From Desulfatiglandales bacterium (lineage in GTDB: Bacteria > Desulfobacterota > DSM-4660 > Desulfatiglandales > Desulfatiglandaceae): a DNA stretch of 64,000 nt. Position numbers and translations under genes: made by a program. Below, in pieces: positions 15,071 through 29,815 of the stretch. The notes under the pieces were generated by a model. It did no database searches. It was not told the DNA's origin and saw only the letters and a list, made by a program, of their open reading frames with translations. Location: assembly GCA_963662465.1 (NCBI GenBank), contig OY759599.1:6176001-6240000 (forward strand). The letters run 5' to 3'. Position 1 is the stretch's first letter; the number at the start of each line of letters is the position of its first letter.

Positions 15071-16462
15071 TTAGTCAGTAACGACCCAGTGTCCACCCTT
15101 ATCTGGCCCCGTACGCCTGAGTCGACCTTCCGCTTGAAGGTTTTTTATGTTTCGTTCAATGGAACGAGTTGTGACGCCTATCTCCTCAGCCAATTCAGCG
15201 ATCGTAATAAGTTTGCTCGATGCCATGAGCCGGAGTATTTTCTCCGACGTTTTCTCCGACGTTTTCTCCGACGTTTTCTCCGACGTTTTCCGGGTTTCGT
15301 CTTTGGCCTTTGGGTAGGTCGGCCTTGGGAATTCAAGGGTGAACATGGTGTTGAAACGGATGTTGACCATGGGGCAATTTTCAATTTGCAATGCTGCTCG
15401 AATGCGCTCAATGCCGGTTCCCATTTTTTCGATATAGTCGCATCGCAACAGCAAGCTTGCGATGAGTGGGTTTCGGCAGACGCTACGCTTGCCGAATTCC
15501 TCGGCTGAGAGCCCTTTGGGAAGCCCACCGGGGTTGTAAATTTCAACCCGATCATCGAAGATTTCCACCATTACCTGTGCGCCTTGCTCCAGGTAGTCCC
15601 GGTGGCAAACAGCGTTGACCATTGCTTCGCGTAGCGCGATTTCAGGCAGTTCCAAGATTTCTTTGCGGCGAGTACTTTGGCGGGTGATTTCCCAGCGCAA
15701 TTGAAGGTGTTTTTTCAAAAAGAGCAGGGCCTCTTCCACGTTTTCCAGCAGATTGCCGTCCAGTTCCTTCCGATCCAGAATATAGGCTTTTCCGGTGCCT
15801 TTGAACAGTGCACAGACTACACTCACATGGAACAGCCGTTGAGTAGGCTTTTTGGCGAAAAAGAGAACCCCAGTCTGGTTGAGATAAAACTGTCCGTCTT
15901 TTTCATCCCCGGCGCCGAGGTTAAGAAGCAGATTGGCGGTATCCGGTTTGGGAGAGATATTTGCCAGTTTCAGGAAATGGTTCAGGCGGTTTGCATCGAG
16001 GGCCTCTTCCCAATTCAGATCCAACCTGAGTTGTTGATCAAAGCGAACCTTCCCTTCCGCCTGAATAAAGCTGGTGATATCATGGGTACTCATTTTCTGG
16101 GAGCTGGCGCCATTGCGCAGATAAAAGCCCTTGTTGCAGCGATGAGGCCTGTTGGCGCCTTCCGGCACATGGATGACCAGAATTTTGTGTTGCGGGAGTT
16201 TTTCAATCCGGATGGCCACCGGCGGATCGCATGAGCTTGCCATATCTTCTATTTTTGACAGGGTTTTGTTGGAAAGATCGCAGCCGACAATTTGATTGTG
16301 ATCATTAACGCCAATCAAAATGCGTCCACCCGAAGCATTGGCAAAGGCCACCAATTCTTTGGGGAGATCCGAGTTGATGCTGCGCTTAAATTCCAGCGTA
16401 TAGCCCTCGCCCTCTTCAAGAATGAGGACCAATTCTTCATCTGTCGTTTTGCGATATCTCAT
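15071..16462 (-). CDS. Schlafen/AlbA_2 domain + HATPase_c_4 + wHTH protein (often annotated RecG-like or transcriptional regulator); ATG 16462 or TTG 16519
   Basis: GEGYTLEFK...ELVAFANASGG (AlbA_2); ALREAMVNAVCHRDY, NPGGL, RNPLIA, EKMGTG; C-terminal wHTH ending GPDKGGHW. Confidence 0.85.
   Translation of the reverse strand: MRYRKTTDEELVLILEEGEGYTLEFKRSINSDLPKELVAFANASGGRILIGVNDHNQIVGCDLSNKTLSKIEDMASSCDPPVAIRIEKLPQHKILVIHVPEGANRPHRCNKGFYLRNGASSQKMSTHDITSFIQAEGKVRFDQQLRLDLNWEEALDANRLNHFLKLANISPKPDTANLLLNLGAGDEKDGQFYLNQTGVLFFAKKPTQRLFHVSVVCALFKGTGKAYILDRKELDGNLLENVEEALLFLKKHLQLRWEITRQSTRRKEILELPEIALREAMVNAVCHRDYLEQGAQVMVEIFDDRVEIYNPGGLPKGLSAEEFGKRSVCRNPLIASLLLRCDYIEKMGTGIERIRAALQIENCPMVNIRFNTMFTLEFPRPTYPKAKDETRKTSEKTSEKTSEKTSEKILRLMASSKLITIAELAEEIGVTTRSIERNIKNLQAEGRLRRTGPDKGGHWVVTD
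15238..15290. repeat. 12-bp tandem repeat (ttttctccgacg) x4 plus partial, encoding KTSE linker repeats
   Basis: Four perfect copies at 15238-15285. Confidence 0.95.
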
Positions 16463-16515
16463 GCGGTCGTCTGCTCCGTGAGCCAAAGTATCCCGATTAT
16501 TGAATATGTTCTTTT

Positions 16516-17193
16516 TCAACCAGCTGTTTCTACGAAATAGGCCTCATCCCACAGCCCGGTTTTCATCTCTGACGTTGAAATAAGATCATGAAACCGCTCA
16601 AGAATGGCGGCTTCTGAATACCGCTTCAATTCTTGGGCCATATTGTCTGGAGATACCTCCCCATCCGACTCCACGTATAAATGTATATGGTCCGGGGCCA
16701 ACCAGAGGAGATTGGCAAAACCGCCCACTGCCTCGCTACAAATCGTGATAGCATTACTGATGTAGTCAACCATGGGTTCCGGCGCAGCAAAAACCGGCCT
16801 TCTGCCGATCACGTTCCAGGCAAAATGATACTTGATGTTAAGCATCATATCCCCGGGATTTCGTGCCAGTTTTTGCAGTGCCAACGCCCGTTGATACTTT
16901 ACCCTTTCGGAATTAAACAATTTTTCCGGGGTGATCCCAACAGGCTGGTCTTTGGGCGCCATCTGTGTTTTCTGCCCTGATGACGTAACCAGTTTCAGCA
17001 ACGGCTGAAAGGCATGGCATTCGAAAAAAACCGTTTCCTGTGTTGACCGGTTTAGATCACAAAGCACTTCTTCTTGAAAACTCAAATCCCGGCAAAAGCG
17101 GCAGCCGGCAGGAATGAATGGCTTGGATGATTTGGTACACGCCAGACATTTTTCAGGAAAATGATTTTGAGATGATGTTTTCTCCAATTCCAT
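16516..17193 (-). CDS. Cys-rich N-terminal domain fused to a truncated IS200-type Y1/HUH domain
   Basis: CLAC/CRFC N terminus; KYHFAWNVIGRRPVF, PDHIHLYV (HUH) and LWDEAYFVETAG; the protein stops before the usual catalytic-Tyr helix. Confidence 0.72.
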   Translation of the reverse strand: MELEKTSSQNHFPEKCLACTKSSKPFIPAGCRFCRDLSFQEEVLCDLNRSTQETVFFECHAFQPLLKLVTSSGQKTQMAPKDQPVGITPEKLFNSERVKYQRALALQKLARNPGDMMLNIKYHFAWNVIGRRPVFAAPEPMVDYISNAITICSEAVGGFANLLWLAPDHIHLYVESDGEVSPDNMAQELKRYSEAAILERFHDLISTSEMKTGLWDEAYFVETAG

Positions 17194-17199
17194 TTTATC

Positions 17200-18279
17200 T
17201 CAACTCCGAATTCCGAAACGGCTCAATTGGGCGCTTTGCTCTTTTCCCTTGGGCAATTCCACCGCCTTCAGCAACCGCTCGATCTGATTCGGATCTGGCA
17301 GCTTGCCTTCCAATTCCGCAGGCAGTTTACGGACAATGCGGTAGGCGGCCACACCGATGGGTTTGTTGCTCTCTTTGAGGGCATATTCCACGATGGTGCG
17401 ATTTTTATGGCGGCACAGGATCATGCCGATGGAGGGGGTTTCGTCGGGCATGCGGACACGGTCGTCCAAGACGGCGAGATAGAACTGCATCTTGCCCACA
17501 TGTTCGGGTTTAAAGTCACTGGTTTTCAATTCAACGGCCACCAAGCATTTGAGCAGGCGGTGGTAGAGGAGCAGGTCGATAAAATATTCCTGGCCTTCGA
17601 TCTCCAGGCGGTACTGGCTGCCCATGAAGGCGAACATGCCGCCCATTTCGCGGAGGAAATGCTCGATGCGGGCGATGATGGCGTGTTCAAGCTCTCTTTC
17701 GCTGTGTTCCTCGCCCAGTTCCAGAAAGTCGAAGGTGTATTCATCGCGGATCGCCAGCTTGGCCTGGGGGCTGATGGACTCGGACAGGGTTTCATTGAAA
17801 TTGTTTTGGCCCAGCAGGGTTTTTTCGTAGGTTTGGTCCTCAATGCGAATGGCCAGGACATTCTTGGTCCAACCGTATTTGCGGGTCATACGGAGATAAA
17901 ATTCTCTTTCCAGATCATCCTTGCACTTATCCAGAATGATCAGATTATGGGTCCATCCAATTTCTGCAACCATTGGCTGCAGTTTTTGGTTTTCCCGGTA
18001 ACAAAGATAAAATTGACGCATGTACCAGATGTTTCGTGCCGAAAAACCGCTGAGACCGGGAAATTCTTCACGCAAATCCGATCCCAGCCGTTCCACCACT
18101 GATTTTCCCCAGCTTTTTTCTTGCTGTCGCTCAGCGATGATGCGGCCGATGTCCCAGTATAGGGTGATGAGGTGCAGGTTGACCACTTTTAGGGCGTCGT
18201 ACTGTGCGGTTCGGACCCGTTTTTTGATGGCTTCAAGAGCCGATTTGTAATCGGAAGGGGTGGGTGTTTTTTTAGCCAT
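17200..18279 (-). CDS. YhcG/DUF1016 PD-(D/E)xK nuclease domain protein
   Basis: LYWDIG, GFSARNIWYMRQFY, YTFDFL, IDLLLYH, VELK, GKMQFY motifs. Confidence 0.88.
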   Translation of the reverse strand: MAKKTPTPSDYKSALEAIKKRVRTAQYDALKVVNLHLITLYWDIGRIIAERQQEKSWGKSVVERLGSDLREEFPGLSGFSARNIWYMRQFYLCYRENQKLQPMVAEIGWTHNLIILDKCKDDLEREFYLRMTRKYGWTKNVLAIRIEDQTYEKTLLGQNNFNETLSESISPQAKLAIRDEYTFDFLELGEEHSERELEHAIIARIEHFLREMGGMFAFMGSQYRLEIEGQEYFIDLLLYHRLLKCLVAVELKTSDFKPEHVGKMQFYLAVLDDRVRMPDETPSIGMILCRHKNRTIVEYALKESNKPIGVAAYRIVRKLPAELEGKLPDPNQIERLLKAVELPKGKEQSAQLSRFGIRS

Positions 18280-18331
18280 GATTCAATGGACCTCTTCAAG
18301 GAGTTGAGCTGTTTCGTCCATCTTTTCTCCG

Positions 18332-20107
18332 TTATGTCGCCGCCTGTTCCACGATGGCGTCGGCCAACTGGACTTGGGTGTTTTGGGCGGCGTTCAGCCG
18401 AGCTTTCAGAGTATCGTAGATGGCCATAAGTTTATCGACTTTGGCGACGATTCGATGTTGTTCGTCTATAGGAGGCAGAGGTAAAAGCCAATTATTTAAT
18501 GCAACCATACCTATATTTGCTTGATTTGCTGTGCCAGTAGACTGTGCATAAATCTCGTCAAGTAACCGATCTTCTTTAATAACCATGTTGAGAAAATCAG
18601 GTACAATCAGTAACCCTCTTATTATGCACAATCGCTGGTTCAAATATAATTTTCGCGGCTCAAAATGTTCTGGTCGAACTATCAGCGAATATAGATAGTC
18701 TCTTTTGCCTTTTGTACCAGTCATGGTTATCAAAATATTATTTAGTTCAATTTGGTATTCTGAAGTTTCCTCGGCTAAGTTAGCTGGTATGTATACAGGT
18801 TTCTCATCTAACCGAAGAAAATCAGGCCTGATATTACCCATCCGAATTACTTGGTGGTTACCAGAATCGGAAAACGCCGAACTTTTATAAGCGAAGCCCC
18901 CCTGTAAAATAGATAGCGCTCCAAGACGTACCCACTCCCATCCTTTCGGCAGTTCAAACAGCTTTTCATCCTCACCAATTTCCGGTAAAGGTTTTTGCTT
19001 TTTAAATTTACCTTCTTTGATGAGCTGAGCTTTTTCTTTGGCGATTTTTTCCAGCAGAATACTGGCAGGTTCGTCGTTGGGATCTTGGGGAACGAGTTTC
19101 CCCATGACGGCGAGTTGAAGGATGGTTTGTTTTAGATGGTCGATGGTCTGTTCGGTGGTGAACAGGGTGTCGAAGTGGTTGGCGATGCGTTCCCAGGCTT
19201 CGGCAAATTCTCTTTGATCGGCGGCATTGGCGAGGGTGGCGAGCAGGGTTTCCACCAGGGTTTGGTGGGTGGCGTTGCTGTCGGCTTGCTGCTGTTCCAG
19301 TTGGTCGCAGAGGACCATCAGTTCATCGACTTTGGCAACGATGCGACGTTGTTCTGCGAGAGGCGGAAGCGCGACTACGGTTGCTGTAATTTTTTCACGG
19401 GAAATATTTGGCTGCGCCCCACCAGATCCCATTCCAATGAACCTATTCTTATATGCTTTTAACAAAGTTAAAAGAAAGATGTTCGCAAGTCCACTAAATG
19501 GTGTACAAGCGCACACCGCCTGATTTGTTGTCGCAGGAACCTTTAAAATGGATGTCTTTCCAATTGTTGCACCGTACATTGCAACCAAAACATCGCCAGC
19601 TTTATTATTGCGAAGTGAAGTCTCTTTGAGTGCCAATTCCGTAACATATTCTTCTGAAGTGGAGATATAATCACCTACGAGTTCCCCTGACTTAAACCAA
19701 GGGATCTTACCACCAAAATAGTCATGGCGATTCCGTGTCGGAGTCGCTCCCGCTCCCCACTCGCCAAGATCATTCAATCTCACAAATTGCCATCCATTTG
19801 GGAGTTTGAACGGTTTTTCTTCGTCAGCAATTCCTGAAAGCGCTTTTGGCTTTTTGATTTTCTTTTCTTTGACAAGTTGAATTCTTTCCTTGGCGATTTT
19901 TTCCAGTAGGATGCTGGCGGGTTCATCATCGGGATCTTGTGGCAACAGTTTACCCCGTACGGCCAACTCCAGAATCAGCTCACGCAGCTTCTTGATCCCA
20001 TGTGGGCTTTGGCCATTTGAATTTTTCCCGCGACCTCTGCCGCCGTTGGTCTTTGGCGTCTCGGCGGTCGCCCAGATATCCATATGTTCGGTGATCACGC
20101 TTACCAT
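18332..20107 (-). CDS. hsdS: type I restriction-modification specificity subunit
   Basis: Two TRDs with repeated LAVxGKLxPQDPxDEPASILLEKI, LPxGWxxVRL and LPPxxEQxRIVAKVD blocks; AT-rich TRDs. Confidence 0.93.
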   Translation of the reverse strand: MVSVITEHMDIWATAETPKTNGGRGRGKNSNGQSPHGIKKLRELILELAVRGKLLPQDPDDEPASILLEKIAKERIQLVKEKKIKKPKALSGIADEEKPFKLPNGWQFVRLNDLGEWGAGATPTRNRHDYFGGKIPWFKSGELVGDYISTSEEYVTELALKETSLRNNKAGDVLVAMYGATIGKTSILKVPATTNQAVCACTPFSGLANIFLLTLLKAYKNRFIGMGSGGAQPNISREKITATVVALPPLAEQRRIVAKVDELMVLCDQLEQQQADSNATHQTLVETLLATLANAADQREFAEAWERIANHFDTLFTTEQTIDHLKQTILQLAVMGKLVPQDPNDEPASILLEKIAKEKAQLIKEGKFKKQKPLPEIGEDEKLFELPKGWEWVRLGALSILQGGFAYKSSAFSDSGNHQVIRMGNIRPDFLRLDEKPVYIPANLAEETSEYQIELNNILITMTGTKGKRDYLYSLIVRPEHFEPRKLYLNQRLCIIRGLLIVPDFLNMVIKEDRLLDEIYAQSTGTANQANIGMVALNNWLLPLPPIDEQHRIVAKVDKLMAIYDTLKARLNAAQNTQVQLADAIVEQAAT

Positions 20108-20109
20108 TT

Positions 20110-21591
20110 CTAAGCTGCTCCCCCGTTATTGAGAGCCTCGGCCAGAATGGTTTTGAGCTGATCTTGCAATTGACTAATTTCCCGTTGTTGCCGGGCATAT
20201 TTTTTCAGTAACTCATCCGGATCATGAGTGATCTGTTCCCCCACATGGGGATTTTTAATATCCAGGTTGTAGTTGCGGGCTTTGATATCATCAATGGAGA
20301 CTTTCCAGGCCTGGTCAGTCTCGACCCTTGCGGCAAAGCCGTCCTCCTCGCTGCCCCACCAATCGATTTCGGCCTGGAACTCCTCAAAGCGCATGGGTTT
20401 GGTCTTGTTGTAGCTTTTGACGCCTTTCGGATAGGGGTGCTCATAATACCAGATATGTTCGGTGGGTTGCCCCTTGGTGAAAAAGAGCAGGTTGGTTTTG
20501 ATGCCGGTGTAGGGGTTGAATACCCCGTTCGGCAATCGCACGATGGTGTGGAGGTTGCATTCCATCAGCAACTGTTCCTTGAGGCGGGTTTTCATGCCTT
20601 CGCCGAAGAAAAAGCCGTCGGGGAGCACCACGGCCGCCCGGCCTCGTTTTTTTAAGAGCTTAATGATTAATGCCACAAACAAATCGGCGGTTTCTCGAGT
20701 GCGCAAGGTGGCCGGAAAATTGTTTTCAATGCCGTCTTCTTCCATGCCCCCGAAGGGCGGATTGGTGACGATAACGTGAACCCGATCTTTTTCGCTGTAA
20801 TCCTTGTACGGGCGGCTTAATGTATTGTCATGCTTGATATTGATGGGGGTGTCGATGCCGTGCAGGATCATATTGGTGATACAGAGCATGTAGGGCAGGG
20901 ATTTTTTGTCGACCCCACGGATGGAGGCTTGCAGCGTTTCTTCATCCTCTGCCGTGTTGACATAGCTCTCTCTCTTATGTTCAATGGCGCAGGTCAAAAA
21001 ACCGCCGGTGCCGCAGGCCGGGTCGAGTACGGTTTCGTCCAACCTCGGAGCAACCCGGTTGACGATGAATTTTGTGACGGCCCGGGGGGTGTAAAACTCT
21101 CCGGCATTTCCGGCGCTTTGCAGGTCTTTGAGGATCTGCTCGTAGATGGCGCCGAAGGTGTGCCGGTCCTTTTGGGTGTTGAAGTCGATCTCGCAGATTT
21201 TATTGATCACCTGGCGCATCAAAGTGCCGGACTTCATGTAGTTGTAGGCGTCTTCAAATACGTCCCGCACCACCAACGCCCGCTTGCCTTCCGGGCCGTG
21301 GGCGCCGAGTTTGTTCTTTAAGGTCGGGAAGAGCTGCAGGTTGACAAAATCGGAGAGTTCGTCGCCGGTCATGCCTTCCGGGTCTTTGGCCCAGGATTGC
21401 CAGCGCAGATGACCCGGCAGCGGGGATTTATAGTCGTCTTCAAGAAGTTCCAATTCGTCTTCCCGGTCATCAAAGATTTTAAGGAAAAACATCCAGACCA
21501 ACTGGCTGATGCGCTGAGCGTCGCCATCGACGCCGACATCTTTACGCATGATATCTTGAATGGATTTGATGATGCCTGAAACATTGCTCAT
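20110..21591 (-). CDS. hsdM: type I restriction-modification N6-adenine methyltransferase
   Basis: [24 protein letters not shown] motifs. Confidence 0.95.
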
Positions 21592-23933
21592 GCAGATAGC
21601 TCCTGTTGAAATAATTCTTGTTCAAGTTCTTGAACGGCGTTTTCGTATTGGGTTTTGCCGCCGAACACCTGATTGATAATCTCCATGGGGGTGCCCATAT
21701 GGCTGAAGGGTTTGAGCTTGAGTACTTTTGCGTTTTCGATGGTGAGAATGCCCTCATCGGCATATTTATCGAGGAGCGCATTTAGCACCGCTCTTGCCTG
21801 TTCGCCGTATTTTGTGAAGTAGTTTCGCTTTTTGACGTTGTTGACCCGCTCTTTTCGAGTGAGCGGGGGCTGATCATAGGCGATATGGCATATCAAGTCA
21901 AAGTCGCCATACTCTTTGCCAATGGTTTCCTTCAAGTTGTCCAGAATGATGCCGTGATCTTCAAGCAATTCGATGATGGCCTGTTTTTTCCCGGCAGTGT
22001 TCCAGGTTCGAAGGAATGCATCCAGGGAAACGAACTCGGATTTGATCTGTTTACGGGTGAAATCTCGGTAAGACTCGGTAATCAGATTGCCGTCCGGGCC
22101 GTAGTATTCAACACGTTCCGCAATAATTTTGACCGGGATGCCGTTAAACACATATTTTTTCGTGCCGTAGCGATTATCGTCGTCATTGTCCTCATCATCC
22201 GGGTCATTCGGATCGGGCGGAACGGGATCATCGTCATCACCCGGTTCATAAATTACCACGGGCTCACCATCGAAATCCGGATCTCTGAAGAGTTCGGTCG
22301 CTTTTTTGAAATCCATGATGGTGAAAAAGTATTTGTTGAATTCTTCCTCTATGCGGGTGCCCCGGCCGATAATCTGCTTAAACATGGTCATGGAGCGGAT
22401 GGTTTTATCCAGCACAATGACCTTACAGGTTTTTGCATCGACACCGGTTGTCAACAGTTCCGATGTGGTGACGATGACGGGGAATTTGCTTTCGGGGTCG
22501 ATAAAATTATCCAGCTCCGCCTTACCTTCGATACTGTCGCCGGTGATGCGCATAACGTATTTGGGGTTGTCGAGGGCGAGCTGCCCCGCGGCATTGATGA
22601 TGGCTGCGCGCATACGTTCCGCATGGTCAATGTTTTCACAGAAGACAATGGTTTTTGCGAATGGATCGGTTGCGTTAAGGAGCTTCATCACCCGGTTTGC
22701 AACGCGCTTTGTTCGTTGGTTCAGGACGAGGATGCGATCCATGTCTTTCTGATTGTAGGTACGCTCTTCGATTTCACGACCAAGATCATCCGTCATGCCG
22801 GGAGGGGGTGTCCAGCCGTAGAGATCCTTGTCCATATCAATGCGCACCACCTTATAGGGTGCGAGAAAACCGTCTGCAATCCCCTGCTTCAGGCTGTAGG
22901 TGTAAACCGGTTCGCCAAAATAGGATATATTTGAAACGTATTTGGTTTCCTTGGGTGTGGCGGTCATACCGATCTGTATGGCGCCGGAAAAATATTCAAG
23001 GATTTCGCGCCAGGCGGAATCATCGGCGGCGCTCCCCCGGTGGCATTCATCGATAACGATCATGTCGAAGAAATCAGGGGAAACATTTTTGAATATCTTA
23101 TCTTCTTCGTCCGGCCCCGTTATGGCCTGATAGAGGCCCAGGTGGATTTCATAGGCCGGATCAATCTTCCGGTTTTTGATCTTGGTCATCACCGACCCGA
23201 ATGGCTTGAAATCATTCACCAGGGTTTGATCGGCCAGAATATTCCGGTCCACCAGAAACAGGGCTCTCTTGACGAGTTTTGCCTTCCAGAGCCGCCAGAT
23301 GATTTGAAATGTCGTATAGGTTTTCCCTGTGCCCGTGGCCATCACAATTAAGATGCGCTTTCGGCCACCCGCGACCGCTTCAACAACCCGATTGATGGCT
23401 TCCACCTGGTAGTAACGGGGCTCTTTCCCTGAACTGTCTGTGTGATAAGGTTGCAAAAGCAGTTCTTCCGATGTGTCTTCGATGCCGCGATAGGTCTTGT
23501 AGCGCTGCCACAGTGTTTGCGGCGGCGGAAATCGGTCAAGGGGGAATTGGGTTTCGATATCCTCATCGGCGGCAGGCGCCTTGTTATGTGAGGAGAAGGT
23601 ATCGCCATTAGAACTGAAGGCACTCGGCACTTCCAGTATTTCCGCGTATCCCAAAGCCTGCTGTATCCCCTGGCTTACGGTGTGCTTATTGTCCTTGGCT
23701 TCTACTACGGCAATGGGGACGCCGGGCTCCTGATAAAGCACGTAGTCCGCGAATTTCTTCTTTTTCTTATTGCGGGATGACATATTACCCCTGACAATGA
23801 TGGGGCCCGGTGTGAGCGTCACCTCGCGGCGGATTTGGTTTCTTGAATCCCACCCGGCATCTTTAATGGCAGGGGTGATGAACAAATCACAGATATCGAT
23901 TTCGCTTAAGTTTTTCTTATTGATTTTGTCCAA
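21588..23933 (-). CDS. hsdR: type I restriction endonuclease subunit R (EcoAI/EcoEI-like); probable TTG start at 23933
   Basis: ADYVL/VVEAK nuclease motif, [26 protein letters not shown]; EcoEI-type C terminus ([18 protein letters not shown]). Confidence 0.93.
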
Positions 23934-24188
23934 AACGCACCTCTTTTCCAAAGACTCAGGCGTACGCTTACCGATTTGGTTTATGGTTGTGAGCATATGC
24001 CCAACATCGGGAGTTGTCAATAATTGTATGGGGGTGGTAGTGGGAAATTGTCCATTAAATGTGAAGGGTTTAAGCCTTGATTGTGCCCGTTCCCCACCGT
24101 GGTTGTTCAGTAGCGGGGCAGGCACGGGGGGTGGTCGGTAAGGCGGGGTTGGGACTCGCAACATAACGTCCCGCGGTCCCGTTGCGGT

Positions 24189-24485
24189 TTACCTGATGGA
24201 ATGGATTTCATCCATGACGTGGATGTCGGGTTTTCCCGCAAGGAGTCCACCGATTTTGCCAAAGAAGGCCTTGAAATGCGGTGTGGCGGAGTGATAATCA
24301 AGGGCCGCCTTGTCGCTGTAACGTTCCAGAATGACAATCGTGTTGGGATTGGCCTCATCCCGATTCATGGTATAGGAGAGGGTTCCCTCTTCCCCGGCTA
24401 CACCCGTCATGAGTTCTTTGATGAGGTCGATGGCATTATCAACCTTTCCCTCTTGAATGGACAGCTTCGCAATAACTCCGATCAT
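24189..24485 (-). CDS. antibiotic biosynthesis monooxygenase (ABM) / putative quinol monooxygenase family protein
   Basis: EEGTLSY, ERYSDKAALDYHSATPHF motifs. Confidence 0.82.
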   Translation of the reverse strand: MIGVIAKLSIQEGKVDNAIDLIKELMTGVAGEEGTLSYTMNRDEANPNTIVILERYSDKAALDYHSATPHFKAFFGKIGGLLAGKPDIHVMDEIHSIR

Positions 24486-24525
24486 TTTACACACTCCTTT
24501 GTTTAGGTTTCTTTGTTCCTCTTAT

Positions 24526-25944
24526 TTATTTTTTCGTCTTTTCAAAGCGTCCCCCGGAGACGGCCGGGTCATTGGGGTAACCGAGGCCCTCAAAATCCAT
24601 GACCCCGTCAGGTCCGTGACAATGGGTACAGGAAAGGGCTTTCTTTTTGGGAACCACCCCGTGGTTGATGGGCCAGTGCATGAGGGTATTGACGAATTTG
24701 ATTTTGCCGCTGTATTTGAGCCCGGCTTCCTTCATGCCGTCCGCCGCGGCCCGGTTCCAGTCAAAATGCGTCCAGAAACCCTCCCACAATTTGGGCACAA
24801 TGAGGTAGCCGTATTCGGCATCGGCCGGCTGTATGCCGGAAAACAGTTTGTAAGGTGTAATCCTGGCGGTTGGATCGCTGATGTCGCCAACCGGCGGATT
24901 CAGCTGCGTTACGCCATTGGCATTGATGGCATCCCCGTTCAAATACCGCCGATGCTTGCCGTTGTTCCAGGCATAGACCGGCTGAACGTTCTGTCGTTTG
25001 ATGAGAACACCCTTCTTTTTGCTGTGGGTGGCGATAACGTCGGGATCCTTCGGCAACAGCTCAACGGCCTTTCCCGCCTTGGACCAGTCCCAGAACATGA
25101 GGGTGGGCTTGTCCCTGGCAAATGTGGGAATATGACAGGTCTGACACGCGACGGTGTCGCAATGGGCATTCAGGGTCTTGAGCAGGGGGTGATCATCATC
25201 ATGGGGCTTTTCGTCGTGACAGTCCGTGCAGGAGACGCGCCCCTCGCTGACGGATGAGGTAACGCTGGCCCCCGAAATTTTATGTTTAAGGGTCACATGG
25301 CATTCCTGGCAGGTAAAATCCTGGCCGCCCATGTGAATATCCTGTAAGGCAGTGGGATGCTTCAGGGTGCTGTCCAGATCCCCGTGCTTGATGGCATCCC
25401 CGCCGCCGCCGAACCAGTGGCATGATCCGCAATTGGCGCGGGTGGGAAGCCCCACCTGTCGCGCGATTTTGACCAGGTCGAGACCTTGTTTTTCATGCCC
25501 GCAGTCCGTGGATGTTTTGGCGTATGTGCCCGTGGTATCGTGACAGACCAGGCAGTCAATGCGCGTGGGATCCGTGAAATCAAATTTTTTGTCCTTCCAT
25601 CCGTAGCCTGCGTGGCAGCTGGTACACCTGCACCAGTTGGAGATGGGGCTCATTCAGAAATTGTTGATCAGTACCCGTTTGCCCAGATCCGTGCGGTGTT
25701 CGTGACCCTGCACATGGGGACTGGGTCCCTGCCACAACCAGTGGGCCGATTGAAGTATTTCATCCGCCTGTTTCCGGTGACATTTGAGGCAGTCTTTCGT
25801 CACCGCCATGCCATTGGCATAGGGGCCCTTTAAACGATTTTGGTGATTGGAAAGACCGGAGTCGGTTTTTTGGGCCATGGAGAGACCCGTATGGATGCAG
25901 AAGGTCAGGATTAAAAGCAATATCGCAAACAAGGTTTTTTTCAT
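24526..25944 (-). CDS. octaheme tetrathionate-reductase-family cytochrome c with Sec at TGA 25654-25656 (472 aa)
   Basis: ORFs 25654-25944 and 24526-25653 are in one frame separated only by TGA; joined they give signal peptide + 8 CxxCH motifs and GKxxxINNF-U-xxxxSNxxRCTSCHAGYGW; SECIS-like hairpin follows. Confidence 0.88.
25619..25636 (-). promoter_or_regulatory. putative bacterial SECIS hairpin (octaheme cytochrome gene)
   Basis: CUGGUGC-AGGU-GUACCAG starting 18 nt after the UGA. Confidence 0.72.
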
Positions 25945-27638
25945 TTTTGATTTTCTCCCAACGATTTGATCGGTTTCAGGTGAACAAAAGACCAGAGATT
26001 GCCGATACCCCCGGGCATCTTTACCCAGCCTTGGAAACGATCGTTTCGGGCTGCCTCTACCCTGGGTCCCGTGTACAGGGGAATGCAGGGAGTTTCCCGT
26101 GCAATAAGTGTCTGCATATCAAAAACCATAGCTTTTCTTCGGTCCGGGTTCCTTTCCCGAGACGCTTTTTCCGCCAGTTCATCAAAGGCGGCGTTTCGAA
26201 AACGGGCATGGTTTTTTCCGCCCGGTAAAGCCTCCGAGCTGTGGAAAAAAGTTTTGAGATAATCCGGATCATCGGAAAGGTTGGTCCATCCTATGATGCA
26301 GGTATCAAAGTCCCCTTTTCTGAGGTGTGCAATGGTCTGGTGCAGGGACTGCATTCGTGTAGATACCGGGATGCCGATTTTTGAGAGGGTCTTCTTGATT
26401 TGCAGGGCCACTTTTAGTCGAAAGGGCCTGTGCCAGCCCCGGGTGGTCAGGATTTCCATGGGCTTCATCTTTTGGCCGTCGGGCAGGATAAGACGTGCTT
26501 TGCCCCAGGAATATCCCGCTTTTTGAAGGATCATTTTGGCCTGGTTGACCCGTTCCTCCGAAGTCAATCCAGCCCCGGGATCCGTCACATGGGGGTTGGA
26601 CCAGAAGGTGTTTTGGGGTGGAATGACACTATATACCGGTGTGCCTTGCCCCTTTAAAATCCGTCTGATAATCTGGCCCCTGTCCACCAAAAGGGCCACG
26701 GCCCGGCGAAACGCGGGATCACTGTAGGGGGCTCGTTCCAGGTTAAAGGTAAGATAGTCATAGCCGGTTCGGTTTGTGCGATAGATCGTTACATGGGGCA
26801 TTTTGGAAATTTGGGATATAAAATCAAGGGGCAGATCCCACCAGATAAAGTCTATTTTGCCTGATACCAGTTCGTTCAAGGATTTTTGAACATCCTGGTT
26901 GAAATCCAGAATGATGGTGGTCAGGTAAGGGCCCACGGAAATGCCTTCTATCTTATGCCCCCGACCAAAAAAATGAGGGTTTTGCTTGAGTACCATAAAG
27001 AACGGTTCGGTGTAGGTTTGCAGAAAAAAAGGACCATTGCTGGAGACGGTTTGCGGTGTAAAGGCGGTAAGGGTTTTAAGGGGATTATGGGTGGTCCGGG
27101 CCGAAAGTACCATTTGCGACCATCTCTTTTTCTGTACAAAGGGCGCGAAAAGTGCCCGCTTAAAAAAGCCGGGACTGGGTCCTTTCAGGGTAAAGCGCAG
27201 GGTCCGTTCATCCAGTGCCTCCATTTTTGCCACATCCTGCCATTTTTCCATATGGCCGGGGACCTGGAATTCCTGAATGGTCTTTACCGTAAACATCAAA
27301 TCCTCCACCGTCACTGGTGAACCGTCATCCCATTTTGCCTCTCGAAGTCGAATGGTGACGCTGTTGGGCAGATCCCCCGGCGTTGGCGGGGATTCCGCCA
27401 GCCAGGGGATCATCCTTCCATCCGCCGGTCCCTTAACATAAAGGGACATGAGGAAAAGCCGAAGAACCTTTTGAGACCAGGCATCGGTCGCGTCGAAATA
27501 GTTCAGGGATTTCGGACGATTCGGCATGGCAATATGAATGCTGTCTTCAACGGCATTTGTCAAACCGGACTGAAATGTCAGGAAAACGATGATGAAACAA
27601 AAAACGGCTCTTCTCAAAATATTCCCTTTGTGCTGCAT
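25941..27638 (-). CDS. ABC transporter substrate-binding protein, family 5 (peptide/nickel type), without adjacent permeases
   Basis: PWLAES, KWDDGSPVTVEDL, NGPFFL, FRRAVALLVDR, GKNHARF motifs; N-terminal hydrophobic signal. Confidence 0.85.
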   Translation of the reverse strand: MQHKGNILRRAVFCFIIVFLTFQSGLTNAVEDSIHIAMPNRPKSLNYFDATDAWSQKVLRLFLMSLYVKGPADGRMIPWLAESPPTPGDLPNSVTIRLREAKWDDGSPVTVEDLMFTVKTIQEFQVPGHMEKWQDVAKMEALDERTLRFTLKGPSPGFFKRALFAPFVQKKRWSQMVLSARTTHNPLKTLTAFTPQTVSSNGPFFLQTYTEPFFMVLKQNPHFFGRGHKIEGISVGPYLTTIILDFNQDVQKSLNELVSGKIDFIWWDLPLDFISQISKMPHVTIYRTNRTGYDYLTFNLERAPYSDPAFRRAVALLVDRGQIIRRILKGQGTPVYSVIPPQNTFWSNPHVTDPGAGLTSEERVNQAKMILQKAGYSWGKARLILPDGQKMKPMEILTTRGWHRPFRLKVALQIKKTLSKIGIPVSTRMQSLHQTIAHLRKGDFDTCIIGWTNLSDDPDYLKTFFHSSEALPGGKNHARFRNAAFDELAEKASRERNPDRRKAMVFDMQTLIARETPCIPLYTGPRVEAARNDRFQGWVKMPGGIGNLWSFVHLKPIKSLGENQK

Positions 27639-27642
27639 GACA

Positions 27643-28323
27643 TCACCCCTTGCCCGGCATCCGGTCCGGTTGCATAACGTCTGTGAATATTGAACTTTCC
27701 TTCTTCCATAAAGAAATATCATTTTCGAGCCTTTGGAAGGCACTAAGTTGCCGCAGTGGCGAGAAATCGGAAATCAATTCTGTGATGCGAATGCGGCATT
27801 CCGCCGTGTTAAACCCTTTTAACCGCCTGCCTCTAAGTCCACTGGCTTTACGTAAGATTTCAAAGAGGATATTTTTCGGGTCCGGGATTTGTTCAACTAC
27901 GGATAGATCAGGTATTTTTAATGGATTTTTTCCGTTGGGATTACCAGCCGCAAGCCTGATTGCGGGTTCGTCGAAAAGCAACCACGCTTCCGTCATTCTT
28001 ATCGGCACCACGCAGACAGTCGGTAATTGAAATCCCCGTTTGGCTGCTTCCTGGAGTGCATCGCGGATTTCCCCGTAGCGCGTTTCCGGTTCTTCTCTTT
28101 CGGCATCTCTATGTACAAAAAGCAAATCGGATGGAAAAAGATCTATAGCGGATAAAATACGTTCATGCAGGCTTTTCGGAGGTTGAGGCAAACGACGCAA
28201 ATCAGCCCATTCAGGTTGCACCCGTTTTACGTCGCCTTTTTGCCTCAGGACCCAGGTGAGGATGGGGAGCAATGCGCGATCCGAAGGTCCGTCGGCAATC
28301 AATGTATACCGAAGCTCATCCAT
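27643..28323 (-). CDS. DUF4276-like (TOPRIM-like) hypothetical protein coupled to the upstream ATPase
   Basis: LIADGPSD, FVHRDAE, VVPIRMTEAWLL, DPK motifs; overlaps the ATPase stop. Confidence 0.68.
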   Translation of the reverse strand: MDELRYTLIADGPSDRALLPILTWVLRQKGDVKRVQPEWADLRRLPQPPKSLHERILSAIDLFPSDLLFVHRDAEREEPETRYGEIRDALQEAAKRGFQLPTVCVVPIRMTEAWLLFDEPAIRLAAGNPNGKNPLKIPDLSVVEQIPDPKNILFEILRKASGLRGRRLKGFNTAECRIRITELISDFSPLRQLSAFQRLENDISLWKKESSIFTDVMQPDRMPGKG

Positions 28324-29815
28324 TATTGAGACCCCACCCCGGAAAATACATCTGGAGGTCATCGCGGTCCACAACCCGATTCGTAGGCTGTTTCGAATTG
28401 GGTTGTGGGGGCGAGGCCGGATTGAGATAAGTCAGAAGCTTGCCTTTCGAGACAATAGCCGGGTTGCCAGGTGCTTTGGCGCGCCATGTATCTGAAAGAT
28501 AGTTGAAGCAGACCTTGTTGAATCTTAGATTGTCACGGATATCTTCCTTCAATTCAGCCACCAGAAGGCAGTTGTCGGGAACTTCGCTAACTACCGCGGG
28601 AGAATGCGTATTGATAATCACCTGGCGCAGAGGATTCGTTTCATCGACCCGTTCATTGGGATCTATTGCAATATCCTGCAGCAATTGCAGCATCGCGGGA
28701 ATTTTTTCCGGGTGTATTCCGTTTTCCGGTTCCTCCAAACAAAGCACCCCTTTGGTGATGGTGTCCAGTTCAAGTACCGTGAGTGCAAGAAAACGAAGTG
28801 TGCCATCGGATAATGAACGAGCAGGATGTTCCGTTCCATCCTTTCCAATAACCTGCAATGTTAAAATTTCGCGTCTGTCGTCCCGATCAACCCACACGCG
28901 GCTCACATCCCCAATCAATGTACTCAGCCGATTGGCGACTTTGGCGAAAATAAAATCCGGGTCTTTTTTTCTTTCTCCGTTTTCAGAAGTCTCGGTTGGT
29001 GTGTGGGCCAGCCGATAAAGGGTTGCGGGGAGATGTTCCCCCCTAAGGGTTAAATGAGAAGGCGCATTAATTTCGTCGGGCTTACGGAGGGCAGAGGGTT
29101 CTAATTGCAAAATGCGCCAAAATTCCATTTCCCGACGGGCGCAGAGAACCGTCGGGCTTTCAGCGGCATTGGCGGCGGATAATACAGTACGGGGAAGATT
29201 TGATGCCGAATGCGGCAGAGGTTTGCCTCGACTCCCGCCACCATCCTGATGGAGTTTAATAATCCGGGAAACCCCGTCCTCTTCCGTGGAGATGAAATAA
29301 GGAACCCTGCGACCCGCTTTAACCACAGTGTCACGCCACTCCTTTGCACTATGCTTGAAAAGCAGGTGTTTTCCAGCCTCACCCTTTTTGATATGGGAAA
29401 GCTCTTCCTTCAGAATCTCCAAAGACCCGTTTGACAGGGTGTTATGTTTGTCGCTTCGATATCCGAGGTCCAGAGCGTATCTCAGCATTGTATTGGTTGC
29501 TTTGCCTGTTTGTCCCAAATCATCCACAGCTTCCCGGGGAACGATCATTTCCACTTCAAAGGACATTCGATCCGTATAATTATTGCCTACACGATGAAAC
29601 AGATTTCGCAGATCGGATGCGCTCCCTCCTTCGGCTCTTATTGACAAAGCGGCTTCGATGAGGGGTCGACTGGCCAAGGCGCTGAGGAAATGGATCGCAT
29701 CAAAAAGATTTGACTTTCCGACGCCATTAACGCCTGCGATACATGTAAATGGTCCAAAACGGACATCTACATCCACCAGGTTCTTAAAACCGTTGACCTT
29801 TAAGCGGATGATCAT
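28316..29815 (-). CDS. AAA_21/AAA_15-type ABC-like ATPase
   Basis: NGFKNL, GVNGVGKSN Walker A, LSDGT signature, LEEPENGIHP Walker B, NTHSP. Confidence 0.88.
   Translation of the reverse strand: MIIRLKVNGFKNLVDVDVRFGPFTCIAGVNGVGKSNLFDAIHFLSALASRPLIEAALSIRAEGGSASDLRNLFHRVGNNYTDRMSFEVEMIVPREAVDDLGQTGKATNTMLRYALDLGYRSDKHNTLSNGSLEILKEELSHIKKGEAGKHLLFKHSAKEWRDTVVKAGRRVPYFISTEEDGVSRIIKLHQDGGGSRGKPLPHSASNLPRTVLSAANAAESPTVLCARREMEFWRILQLEPSALRKPDEINAPSHLTLRGEHLPATLYRLAHTPTETSENGERKKDPDFIFAKVANRLSTLIGDVSRVWVDRDDRREILTLQVIGKDGTEHPARSLSDGTLRFLALTVLELDTITKGVLCLEEPENGIHPEKIPAMLQLLQDIAIDPNERVDETNPLRQVIINTHSPAVVSEVPDNCLLVAELKEDIRDNLRFNKVCFNYLSDTWRAKAPGNPAIVSKGKLLTYLNPASPPQPNSKQPTNRVVDRDDLQMYFPGWGLNNG

Follow-up and report, generated by a model that had tools for sequence, protein, structure and literature searches.

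A cytochrome gene interrupted by a single TGA

The window analysed here is a stretch of 64,000 nucleotides from the genome of a Desulfatiglandales bacterium (contig OY759599.1, positions 6,176,001 to 6,240,000 of the forward strand). On its reverse strand, two open reading frames in the same frame are separated by nothing but the TGA codon at 25654-25656, and reading through this codon joins them into a single product of 472 residues (Table 1). The first-pass annotation, made from the letters of the sequence, had claimed this arrangement together with a signal peptide and eight heme attachment sites, and these claims hold, the signal peptide as a probable one. The read-through product contains exactly eight CxxCH motifs, starting at residues 52, 107, 131, 172, 212, 239, 267 and 439, with the very sequences that had been announced (CLKCH, CTSCH, CLVCH, CGSCH, CQECH, CTDCH, CQTCH and CTHCH). 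A hydropathy scan finds its sole strongly hydrophobic stretch at the N-terminus (19-residue mean of 2.2 over residues 5-23, against values of 0.45 at most after residue 30), consistent with a cleavable signal peptide, and N-termini resembling this region are seen in 11 relatives; the scan detected no membrane anchor. Besides the position of the TGA, the non-heme cysteines of the product are residues 16 (in the signal peptide), 105, 148 and 262.

An assembly error had also to be considered, and there is no sign of one: in public run X1, which may be the source sample, a contig spanning 25078-26664 shows zero differences, TGA included. The RNA runs X21 and X22 yielded contigs of relatives and no others, in small share and with thin cover over the TGA. 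A promoter and terminator scan gave nothing usable, with 5 promoter sites (3.4 expected) and 4 terminator sites (7.5 expected). Where a pseudogene call had been anticipated from automated annotation, public collections carry two separate proteins of 96 and 375 residues; the joined product is absent from them, and many of the top homologs are likewise C-terminal pieces. What looks like two broken pieces is confirmed as one gene, coding for one exported polypeptide.

Table 1. Coordinates of the cytochrome gene, its component features and its immediate neighbours (window positions)
Feature	Position	Strand	Basis or remark
Single coding sequence, 472 aa with predicted Sec97, OTR-family octaheme cytochrome c	24526..25944	-	profile, alignment and fold
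Upstream ORF, 96 aa	25654-25944	-	ORF list
Downstream ORF, 375 aa	24526-25653	-	ORF list
In-frame TGA, predicted Sec97, column of OTR Cys64	25654..25656	-	alignment, homologs
Likely ribosome-binding site GGGAG, 10 nt 5' of ATG	25955..25959	-	sequence; function inferred
Probable Sec-pathway signal peptide, residues 1-24	25873..25944	-	hydropathy; cleavage site inferred
Heme 1 motif CLKCH, residues 52-56, 5' of the TGA	25777..25791	-	sequence
Lys89, equivalent of OTR Lys56, predicted heme 2 axial ligand	25678..25680	-	1SP3 alignment, PMC3769277
Type-A SECIS hairpin, 7 bp, loop AGGU, encoding W104-C105-R106-C107-T108	25619..25636	-	sequence, conservation
Cys105, within the SECIS stem (OTR has Pro72), found together with Cys148	25630..25632	-	alignment, counts
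Heme 2 motif CTSCH, residues 107-111; catalytic heme in OTR	25612..25626	-	sequence, alignment
Heme motifs 3-8, residues 131, 172, 212, 239, 267, 439	24616..25554	-	sequence
Cys148, beyond the SECIS (OTR has Ala115), found together with Cys105	25501..25503	-	alignment, counts
Cys262, in 11/13 members of the clade, not across Sec forms	25159..25161	-	alignment
Family-5 solute-binding protein gene (PF00496)	25941..27743	-	true start probably 27635
ABM-domain gene (PF03992), next gene downstream, adjacency not conserved	24189..24494	-	Pfam

A member of the octaheme tetrathionate reductase family

The TIGR04315 profile recognizes the product with 520.1 bits, against a curated cut-off of 375, and a sequence search of the PDB returns 1SP3, the octaheme tetrathionate reductase (OTR) of Shewanella, as its sole match (E 4e-129). 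This alignment pairs residue 97 with Cys64 and Lys89 with Lys56 (numbering counted from the alignment), the latter being the ligand of heme II in OTR (PMC3769277), and the eight CxxCH motifs are in register. An AlphaFold2 model built with cysteine at position 97 (pLDDT 94.5) retrieves 1sp3 with Foldseek (E 1.5e-49, TM 0.88), the only match at E<=0.001. Lysine occupies the position of Lys89 in 190 of 191 family genes. An OTR fold with a Lys-ligated heme 2 is almost certainly what these comparisons point to.

The TGA as a predicted selenocysteine codon

The genome holds selA, selB and selD, all above profile cut-offs, and a tRNA-Sec with a G discriminator, supplying the machinery that the selenocysteine proposal had called for; it also has two cytochrome c assembly genes. 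Further TGA-bearing genes code for Fdh, MvhD and SelD. Among the MvhD/FlpD matches in G000:C1, 9 of 16 carry an in-frame TGA, at two positions, with one gene having both: the host genome is Sec-rich.

The family itself is more telling. In a phylum sample of 401 genomes, 68 listed matches pass the TIGR04315 cut-off, of which 29 contain one TGA; no other stop is found in any. The TGA form occurs in 27 of the 61 genomes with a full family match, host included. All 28 non-self TGAs lie at column 97, where the remaining 39 matches have cysteine. In the host's own family (105 genomes), the TGA is present in 14 of 22 matches above the cut-off. Cultured carriers include Desulfocicer niacini and delta proteobacterium NaphS2. 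To be sure, selB is present in all 60 other OTR-bearing genomes of the phylum, Cys and TGA forms alike, and this co-occurrence is uninformative as to which form is used. A wider set of 191 distinct genes, chosen by a motif requiring cysteine or a stop at column 97, comprises 64 TGA and 127 Cys genes, which substantiates the Cys/TGA pairing looked for at this column; a column-based check of 96 new loci finds a single leucine there. In an alignment of 146 proteins, no non-heme cysteine other than that of column 97 is invariant. The claim that selenocysteine stands where the OTR family has a cysteine is upheld in that the TGA column is that of OTR Cys64, near-invariant in the family.

Two other ways of understanding the codon have to be weighed. 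UGA might be read as cysteine by a tRNA-Cys(UCA) of the selC* type, known from some Desulfobacterales (PMC5389517), or as tryptophan under an altered code. Here the genome has one UCA tRNA (ARAGORN, default threshold), with a G discriminator where selC* has U73, and one selB above cut-off; ordinary genes, such as the one upstream of the cytochrome, end in TGA, and tryptophan is never aligned at column 97, all of which renders such decoding very improbable. Just as improbable is a genuine stop, whether the gene is a pseudogene, the assembly is in error or the enzyme is split, with a second chain that restarts at the next ATG. It is true that the codon following the TGA is here an ATG and that databases call two proteins, but the same TGA is found in 64 distinct genes (one of them a decayed copy), the next codon is for isoleucine in 19 of 31 type-A genes (those sharing the hairpin described below), the second piece has no signal peptide by hydropathy, and a split enzyme would put Lys89 and heme 2 on separate chains; the X1 contig and the assembly agree over the TGA. 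Conservation and the Sec machinery leave hardly any doubt that the TGA would be recoded as selenocysteine.

Two unrelated SECIS hairpins

The 7-bp hairpin with an AGGU loop that had been noticed after the UGA is indeed there; it begins at the 18th base after that codon. The published bacterial consensus has a loop of 3-9 nt with a G in its first two positions, a stem of 4-16 bp, a spacing of 16-37 nt and a minimum free energy of -7.5 or lower (PMC13188914). With a loop of 4 nt located 24 nt after the UGA, a stem of 7 bp and an energy of -10.6 to -11.1 kcal/mol, the hairpin, henceforth type A, falls within these bounds. Folding energy was tried as evidence in itself and discarded: it does not exceed what chance gives (z -0.40), with 71 of 200 shuffles folding as well. 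Rfam returned no match at E<=1 over window positions 24000-28500. Because folding energy does not stand out from shuffles, the case for the hairpin rests on its conservation. The stem retains its seven base pairs in 44 of 46 type-A genes, providing the homologs with TGA plus hairpin that the proposal demanded, against 1 of 127 Cys genes; the Arg106 codon is AGG in 37/37 type-A genes vs 3/89 Cys genes, and locus L195 displays a two-sided change in the stem. Such freezing of synonymous sites in TGA genes only is an expected consequence of recoding, related sequences not being independent of one another. The GCAGGT core of type A recurs in the two best Fdh Sec genes of the genome.

A different hairpin occupies the same place in a second set of TGA genes (type B, N-E-A-R): all 17 of them have it unchanged, and one of the 127 Cys genes has it complete. 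In run X1, a contig of another organism, with a loose end at window position 25614, carries the type-B hairpin. The TGA gene L231 (G480:C378:8027-9286), which belongs to a member of about 1094 residues with Ser105 and Ala148, fits neither type and is possibly a recent or weak gain of selenocysteine.

Evolutionary history

Trees of 98-100 cores (MAFFT/FastTree/IQ-TREE; unrooted, no outgroup) split the Sec forms into at least four groups interspersed with Cys forms, and at least six Sec/Cys changes are required. Monophyly is rejected for type A (p-AU 4e-8), type B (8e-7) and all Sec forms together (2e-10), in tests with residues 97-112 and 148 masked, 2000 replicates and FastTree constrained trees, which make p-AU approximate. 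This history is compatible with repeated gain of selenocysteine and also with an ancient Sec state that was lost repeatedly. Transfer of a Sec-SECIS-Cys tract between clades was considered and is not supported, windows 112-171 following each clade's own relatives; the two type-A clades resemble each other more closely over residues 98-104 only.

Several loci are worth recording beside this picture. L065 (G141:C3:9958-11310), a Cys form lying within a Sec clade, has a remnant stem without the AGG loop, both extra cysteines discussed below and seven heme motifs only; it is likely a reversion from Sec to Cys. At L005, further TGA-type OTR copies (L005:571 and L005:9224) flank the main one, one intact and one decayed. 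In the latter a TGA at column 148 was examined as a second selenocysteine and dismissed: the N-terminus is lost and a further TGA interrupts a heme motif, as expected of a pseudogene. Finally, in L119 (G197:C7:137843-139042), a distant OTR-like protein that scores below the cut-off (E 1e-55), column 97 is again a TGA, with different sequence around it, which suggests Sec use in a further subfamily.

Two cysteines that come together

Cys105 and Cys148 are both present in 45 Sec genes and in L065, and both absent from 18 Sec and 126 Cys genes; neither is ever found alone in 190 intact genes, the 191st, left out of this count, being the decayed L005 copy with a stop at column 148. The pair came to light in 98 cores, and 96 further non-duplicate loci then gave 10 with both and 86 with neither. 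The first-pass annotation had singled out the cysteines of SNWCRC and STDCGH as possible redox partners, and this perfect co-occurrence lends support to the view that they matter. On the tree, their covariation reflects about two evolutionary events. The codon for residue 105 is forced to be a cysteine codon because the SECIS stem pairs it with those of Cys107 and Thr108. The idea that Cys105 is a mere by-product of the SECIS is weakened by its covariation with Cys148, although it may still account for its origin. From the pattern of co-occurrence a Cys105-Cys148 disulfide is reasonably likely. It could either tie off a stray thiol located two residues from a heme-attachment cysteine or recycle the selenocysteine. 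The extra cysteines are not needed for the Sec form as such, since 18 Sec genes, type B included, lack both.

Genomic neighbourhood

The stop of the family-5 binding-protein gene overlaps the start of the cytochrome gene (ATGA), and no permease gene lies beside it. Among the 13 host-family genomes having a close form of this binding protein (>=45% identity), it adjoins the Sec cytochrome in 11 and is apart from it in 2; several Sec genes of the host clade have no neighbouring binding protein. Two of the three closer paralogs in the host genome are also without family-5 permeases. The link between the two genes is real within kin. The window locus has no cytochrome b, NrfD or sulfur-carrier gene beside the cytochrome. 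In other clades NrfD and cytochrome b genes are often found next to family members, five NrfD-family genes exist elsewhere in the host genome, and YeeE/YedE-rhodanese genes accompany six Cys-form loci.

An ATPase and a small partner (27643-29815, reverse strand) match PADLOC HEC-01A and HEC-01B (E 5e-97 and 3e-26) and sit between the genes for a CDF transporter and the binding protein, which are near neighbours in several relatives; the arrangement resembles the insertion of a defence pair. Type I restriction-modification genes (R, M and S) and a PDC-S02-like gene follow immediately after the cytochrome operon, at 15071-24164 on the same strand. A large adenylate/guanylate cyclase-AAA-TPR gene lies next to the binding protein-cytochrome pair at L004, L006, L007 and L010 and is absent from the window.

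A proposed periplasmic heme-selenoenzyme

The scheme that we favour is built from sequence and analogy. SelB bound to the hairpin would insert selenocysteine at codon 97; the product would be exported, loaded with eight c-type hemes and folded like OTR with Lys89 ligating heme 2, to act as a soluble periplasmic enzyme that reduces sulfur-sulfur bonds, those of tetrathionate or polysulfide being the likeliest. The selenolate of Sec97 would attack the S-S bond of the substrate with release of one half, and the Se-S adduct would be cleared by two electrons travelling down the heme chain via heme 2. Cys148 would pair with the SECIS-forced Cys105, for tying-off only or as a relay for Sec97. Sec97 is proposed as the nucleophile because it replaces the only invariant non-heme cysteine and is near the heme ligand, column 97 being eight residues past the lysine and ten before the heme 2 motif. 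With closeness to the heme deduced from this spacing, it is quite likely that Sec97 acts at the heme 2 site. Changes from cysteine to selenocysteine mostly hit redox cysteines (PMC1794560), and precedents exist: in MccSep a selenocysteine beside a heme attacks polysulfide (PMC13510729), and TsdA cleaves tetrathionate via a covalent cysteine adduct (PMC5146829). In sediment microcosms, otr transcripts rose 36-fold with tetrathionate (PMC8528874). By analogy with such systems a sulfur-sulfur substrate is marginally favoured. Counting against the scheme, the locus has no membrane anchor, cytochrome b or sulfur-carrier gene that would point to a donor or a substrate, and one homolog has leucine at column 97. 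As a whole, a Sec97 periplasmic S-S reductase with heme 2 chemistry seems the best explanation and a fairly probable one.

Selenocysteine might instead be inserted into an enzyme that is mainly a nitrite or hydroxylamine reductase, or a detoxifier of oxidants or selenite, with Sec97 accessory or protective. OTR is promiscuous, described as using nitrogen and sulfur substrates, nitrite included, and MccSep reduces selenite too (PMC13510729); OTR has also been grouped with nitrite reducers (10.1101/2022.02.24.481543). The window locus, moreover, offers no sulfur-carrier gene that would point elsewhere. Against this, repeated exchange of Cys and Sec at one invariant cysteine points to thiol-type chemistry, and sulfur-transport and rhodanese genes neighbour Cys-form loci, leaving nitrite reduction or detoxification as an unlikely main role. 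Heme-bound nitrite reduction is not known to depend on such thiol-type chemistry. A different elaboration would have Sec97, Cys105 and Cys148 form a thiol-selenol relay, Sec97 attacking, Cys105 resolving and Cys148 recycling, so that the type-A cycle differs from that of type-B and Cys enzymes. The two cysteines, never found singly, are shared by 45 Sec genes plus L065, the Cys gene lying inside a Sec clade, and are spread over two clades whose union is rejected and which show no sign of a transferred tract. Yet stem pairing alone explains Cys105, type-B Sec enzymes manage without the pair, independent gains number only about two and a purely structural disulfide fits equally well; such a relay appears doubtful.

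Returning to the S-S reductase, its boldest version would be a Lys-ligated, open-site octaheme cytochrome turned selenoenzyme on several independent occasions, by way of two unrelated SECIS hairpins placed in the heme 2 motif, the present subtype having recruited the SECIS-forced cysteine with Cys148 as a relay at the catalytic heme and being fed by a dedicated orphan binding protein, a combination that we hold as speculative and improbable in full. If true, this would be a second heme-selenium sulfur reductase, unrelated to MccSep, the Cys64 of OTR would be an overlooked but real catalytic nucleophile, and a sizeable fraction of the otr genes of sulfur-cycling bacteria would be truncated in databases.

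Significance and comparison with known systems

Studies of sediment genomes take otr as an indicator of tetrathionate respiration, yet its TGA forms lie in databases as two pieces. Repeated substitution by selenocysteine marks OTR Cys64 as a likely catalytic residue, open to a direct mutational test, and with Cys105/Cys148 one can test whether an mRNA recoding signal shapes the active-site region of a protein. The papers searched for details of the OTR active site gave the statement on Lys56, and nothing on Cys64 or on such a mechanism. A literature search, in which subscription journals were thinly covered, found no study of a Sec-containing OTR. The main texts of BSepDB and deep-Sep, in the parts available, use neither 'octaheme' nor 'tetrathionate' (PMC13326102, PMC12013277); one BSepDB supplement, which possibly does not hold the family list, has neither these words nor 'cytochrome'.

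The view that Sec-containing multiheme cytochromes are rarely described was overstated. TIGR04315 is listed in a 2026 review as a selenoprotein family annotated in GenBank (PMC13188914, Table 1, e.g. WP_331457571.1), and MccSep is a characterized multiheme selenoenzyme. The GenBank/RefSeq members belong to the same family and have one selenocysteine, at what we assume to be the same position; the table entry gives neither a Sec motif nor a primary reference, and the accessible text of the review describes no SECIS types, Cys pair or clades for TIGR04315. In sum, this is a sound, if mis-annotated, selenoprotein gene of a family already listed as Sec-containing, apparently with no bench study. 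What is added here is, apparently, the two unrelated SECIS hairpins, the several separate Sec clades, the Cys pair and the link with an orphan family-5 binding protein.

The closest known relative is OTR of Shewanella oneidensis (SO4144, PDB 1SP3), with 45% identity, a shared fold (TM 0.88), eight CxxCH motifs, a heme 2 lysine (K56 = K89) and a soluble, exported nature. It differs in having Cys64 in place of Sec97, Pro72 in place of Cys105 and Ala115 in place of Cys148, and the Sec cytochrome gene further sits behind that of a family-5 binding protein. TsdA, the diheme thiosulfate dehydrogenase/tetrathionate reductase, forms an adduct on an active-site cysteine next to a heme (PMC5146829) and is a model for the chemistry only, having two hemes, a cysteine that is itself a heme ligand, an unrelated fold and no selenocysteine. 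The MccSep/ExtKL polysulfide reductase of Geobacter sulfurreducens (NF040886; PMC13510729) is likewise a periplasmic multiheme c-type cytochrome with a catalytic selenocysteine beside a heme, hidden as two open reading frames and common in Desulfobacterota. Unlike the OTR type, it has five hemes, a His/Cys-ligated active heme and its selenocysteine near the C-terminus. The NF040886 profile does not match our product, and no copy of MccSep was found in the genome. The Sec octaheme cytochrome is not an MccSep, which is its mechanistic analogue and not its relative.
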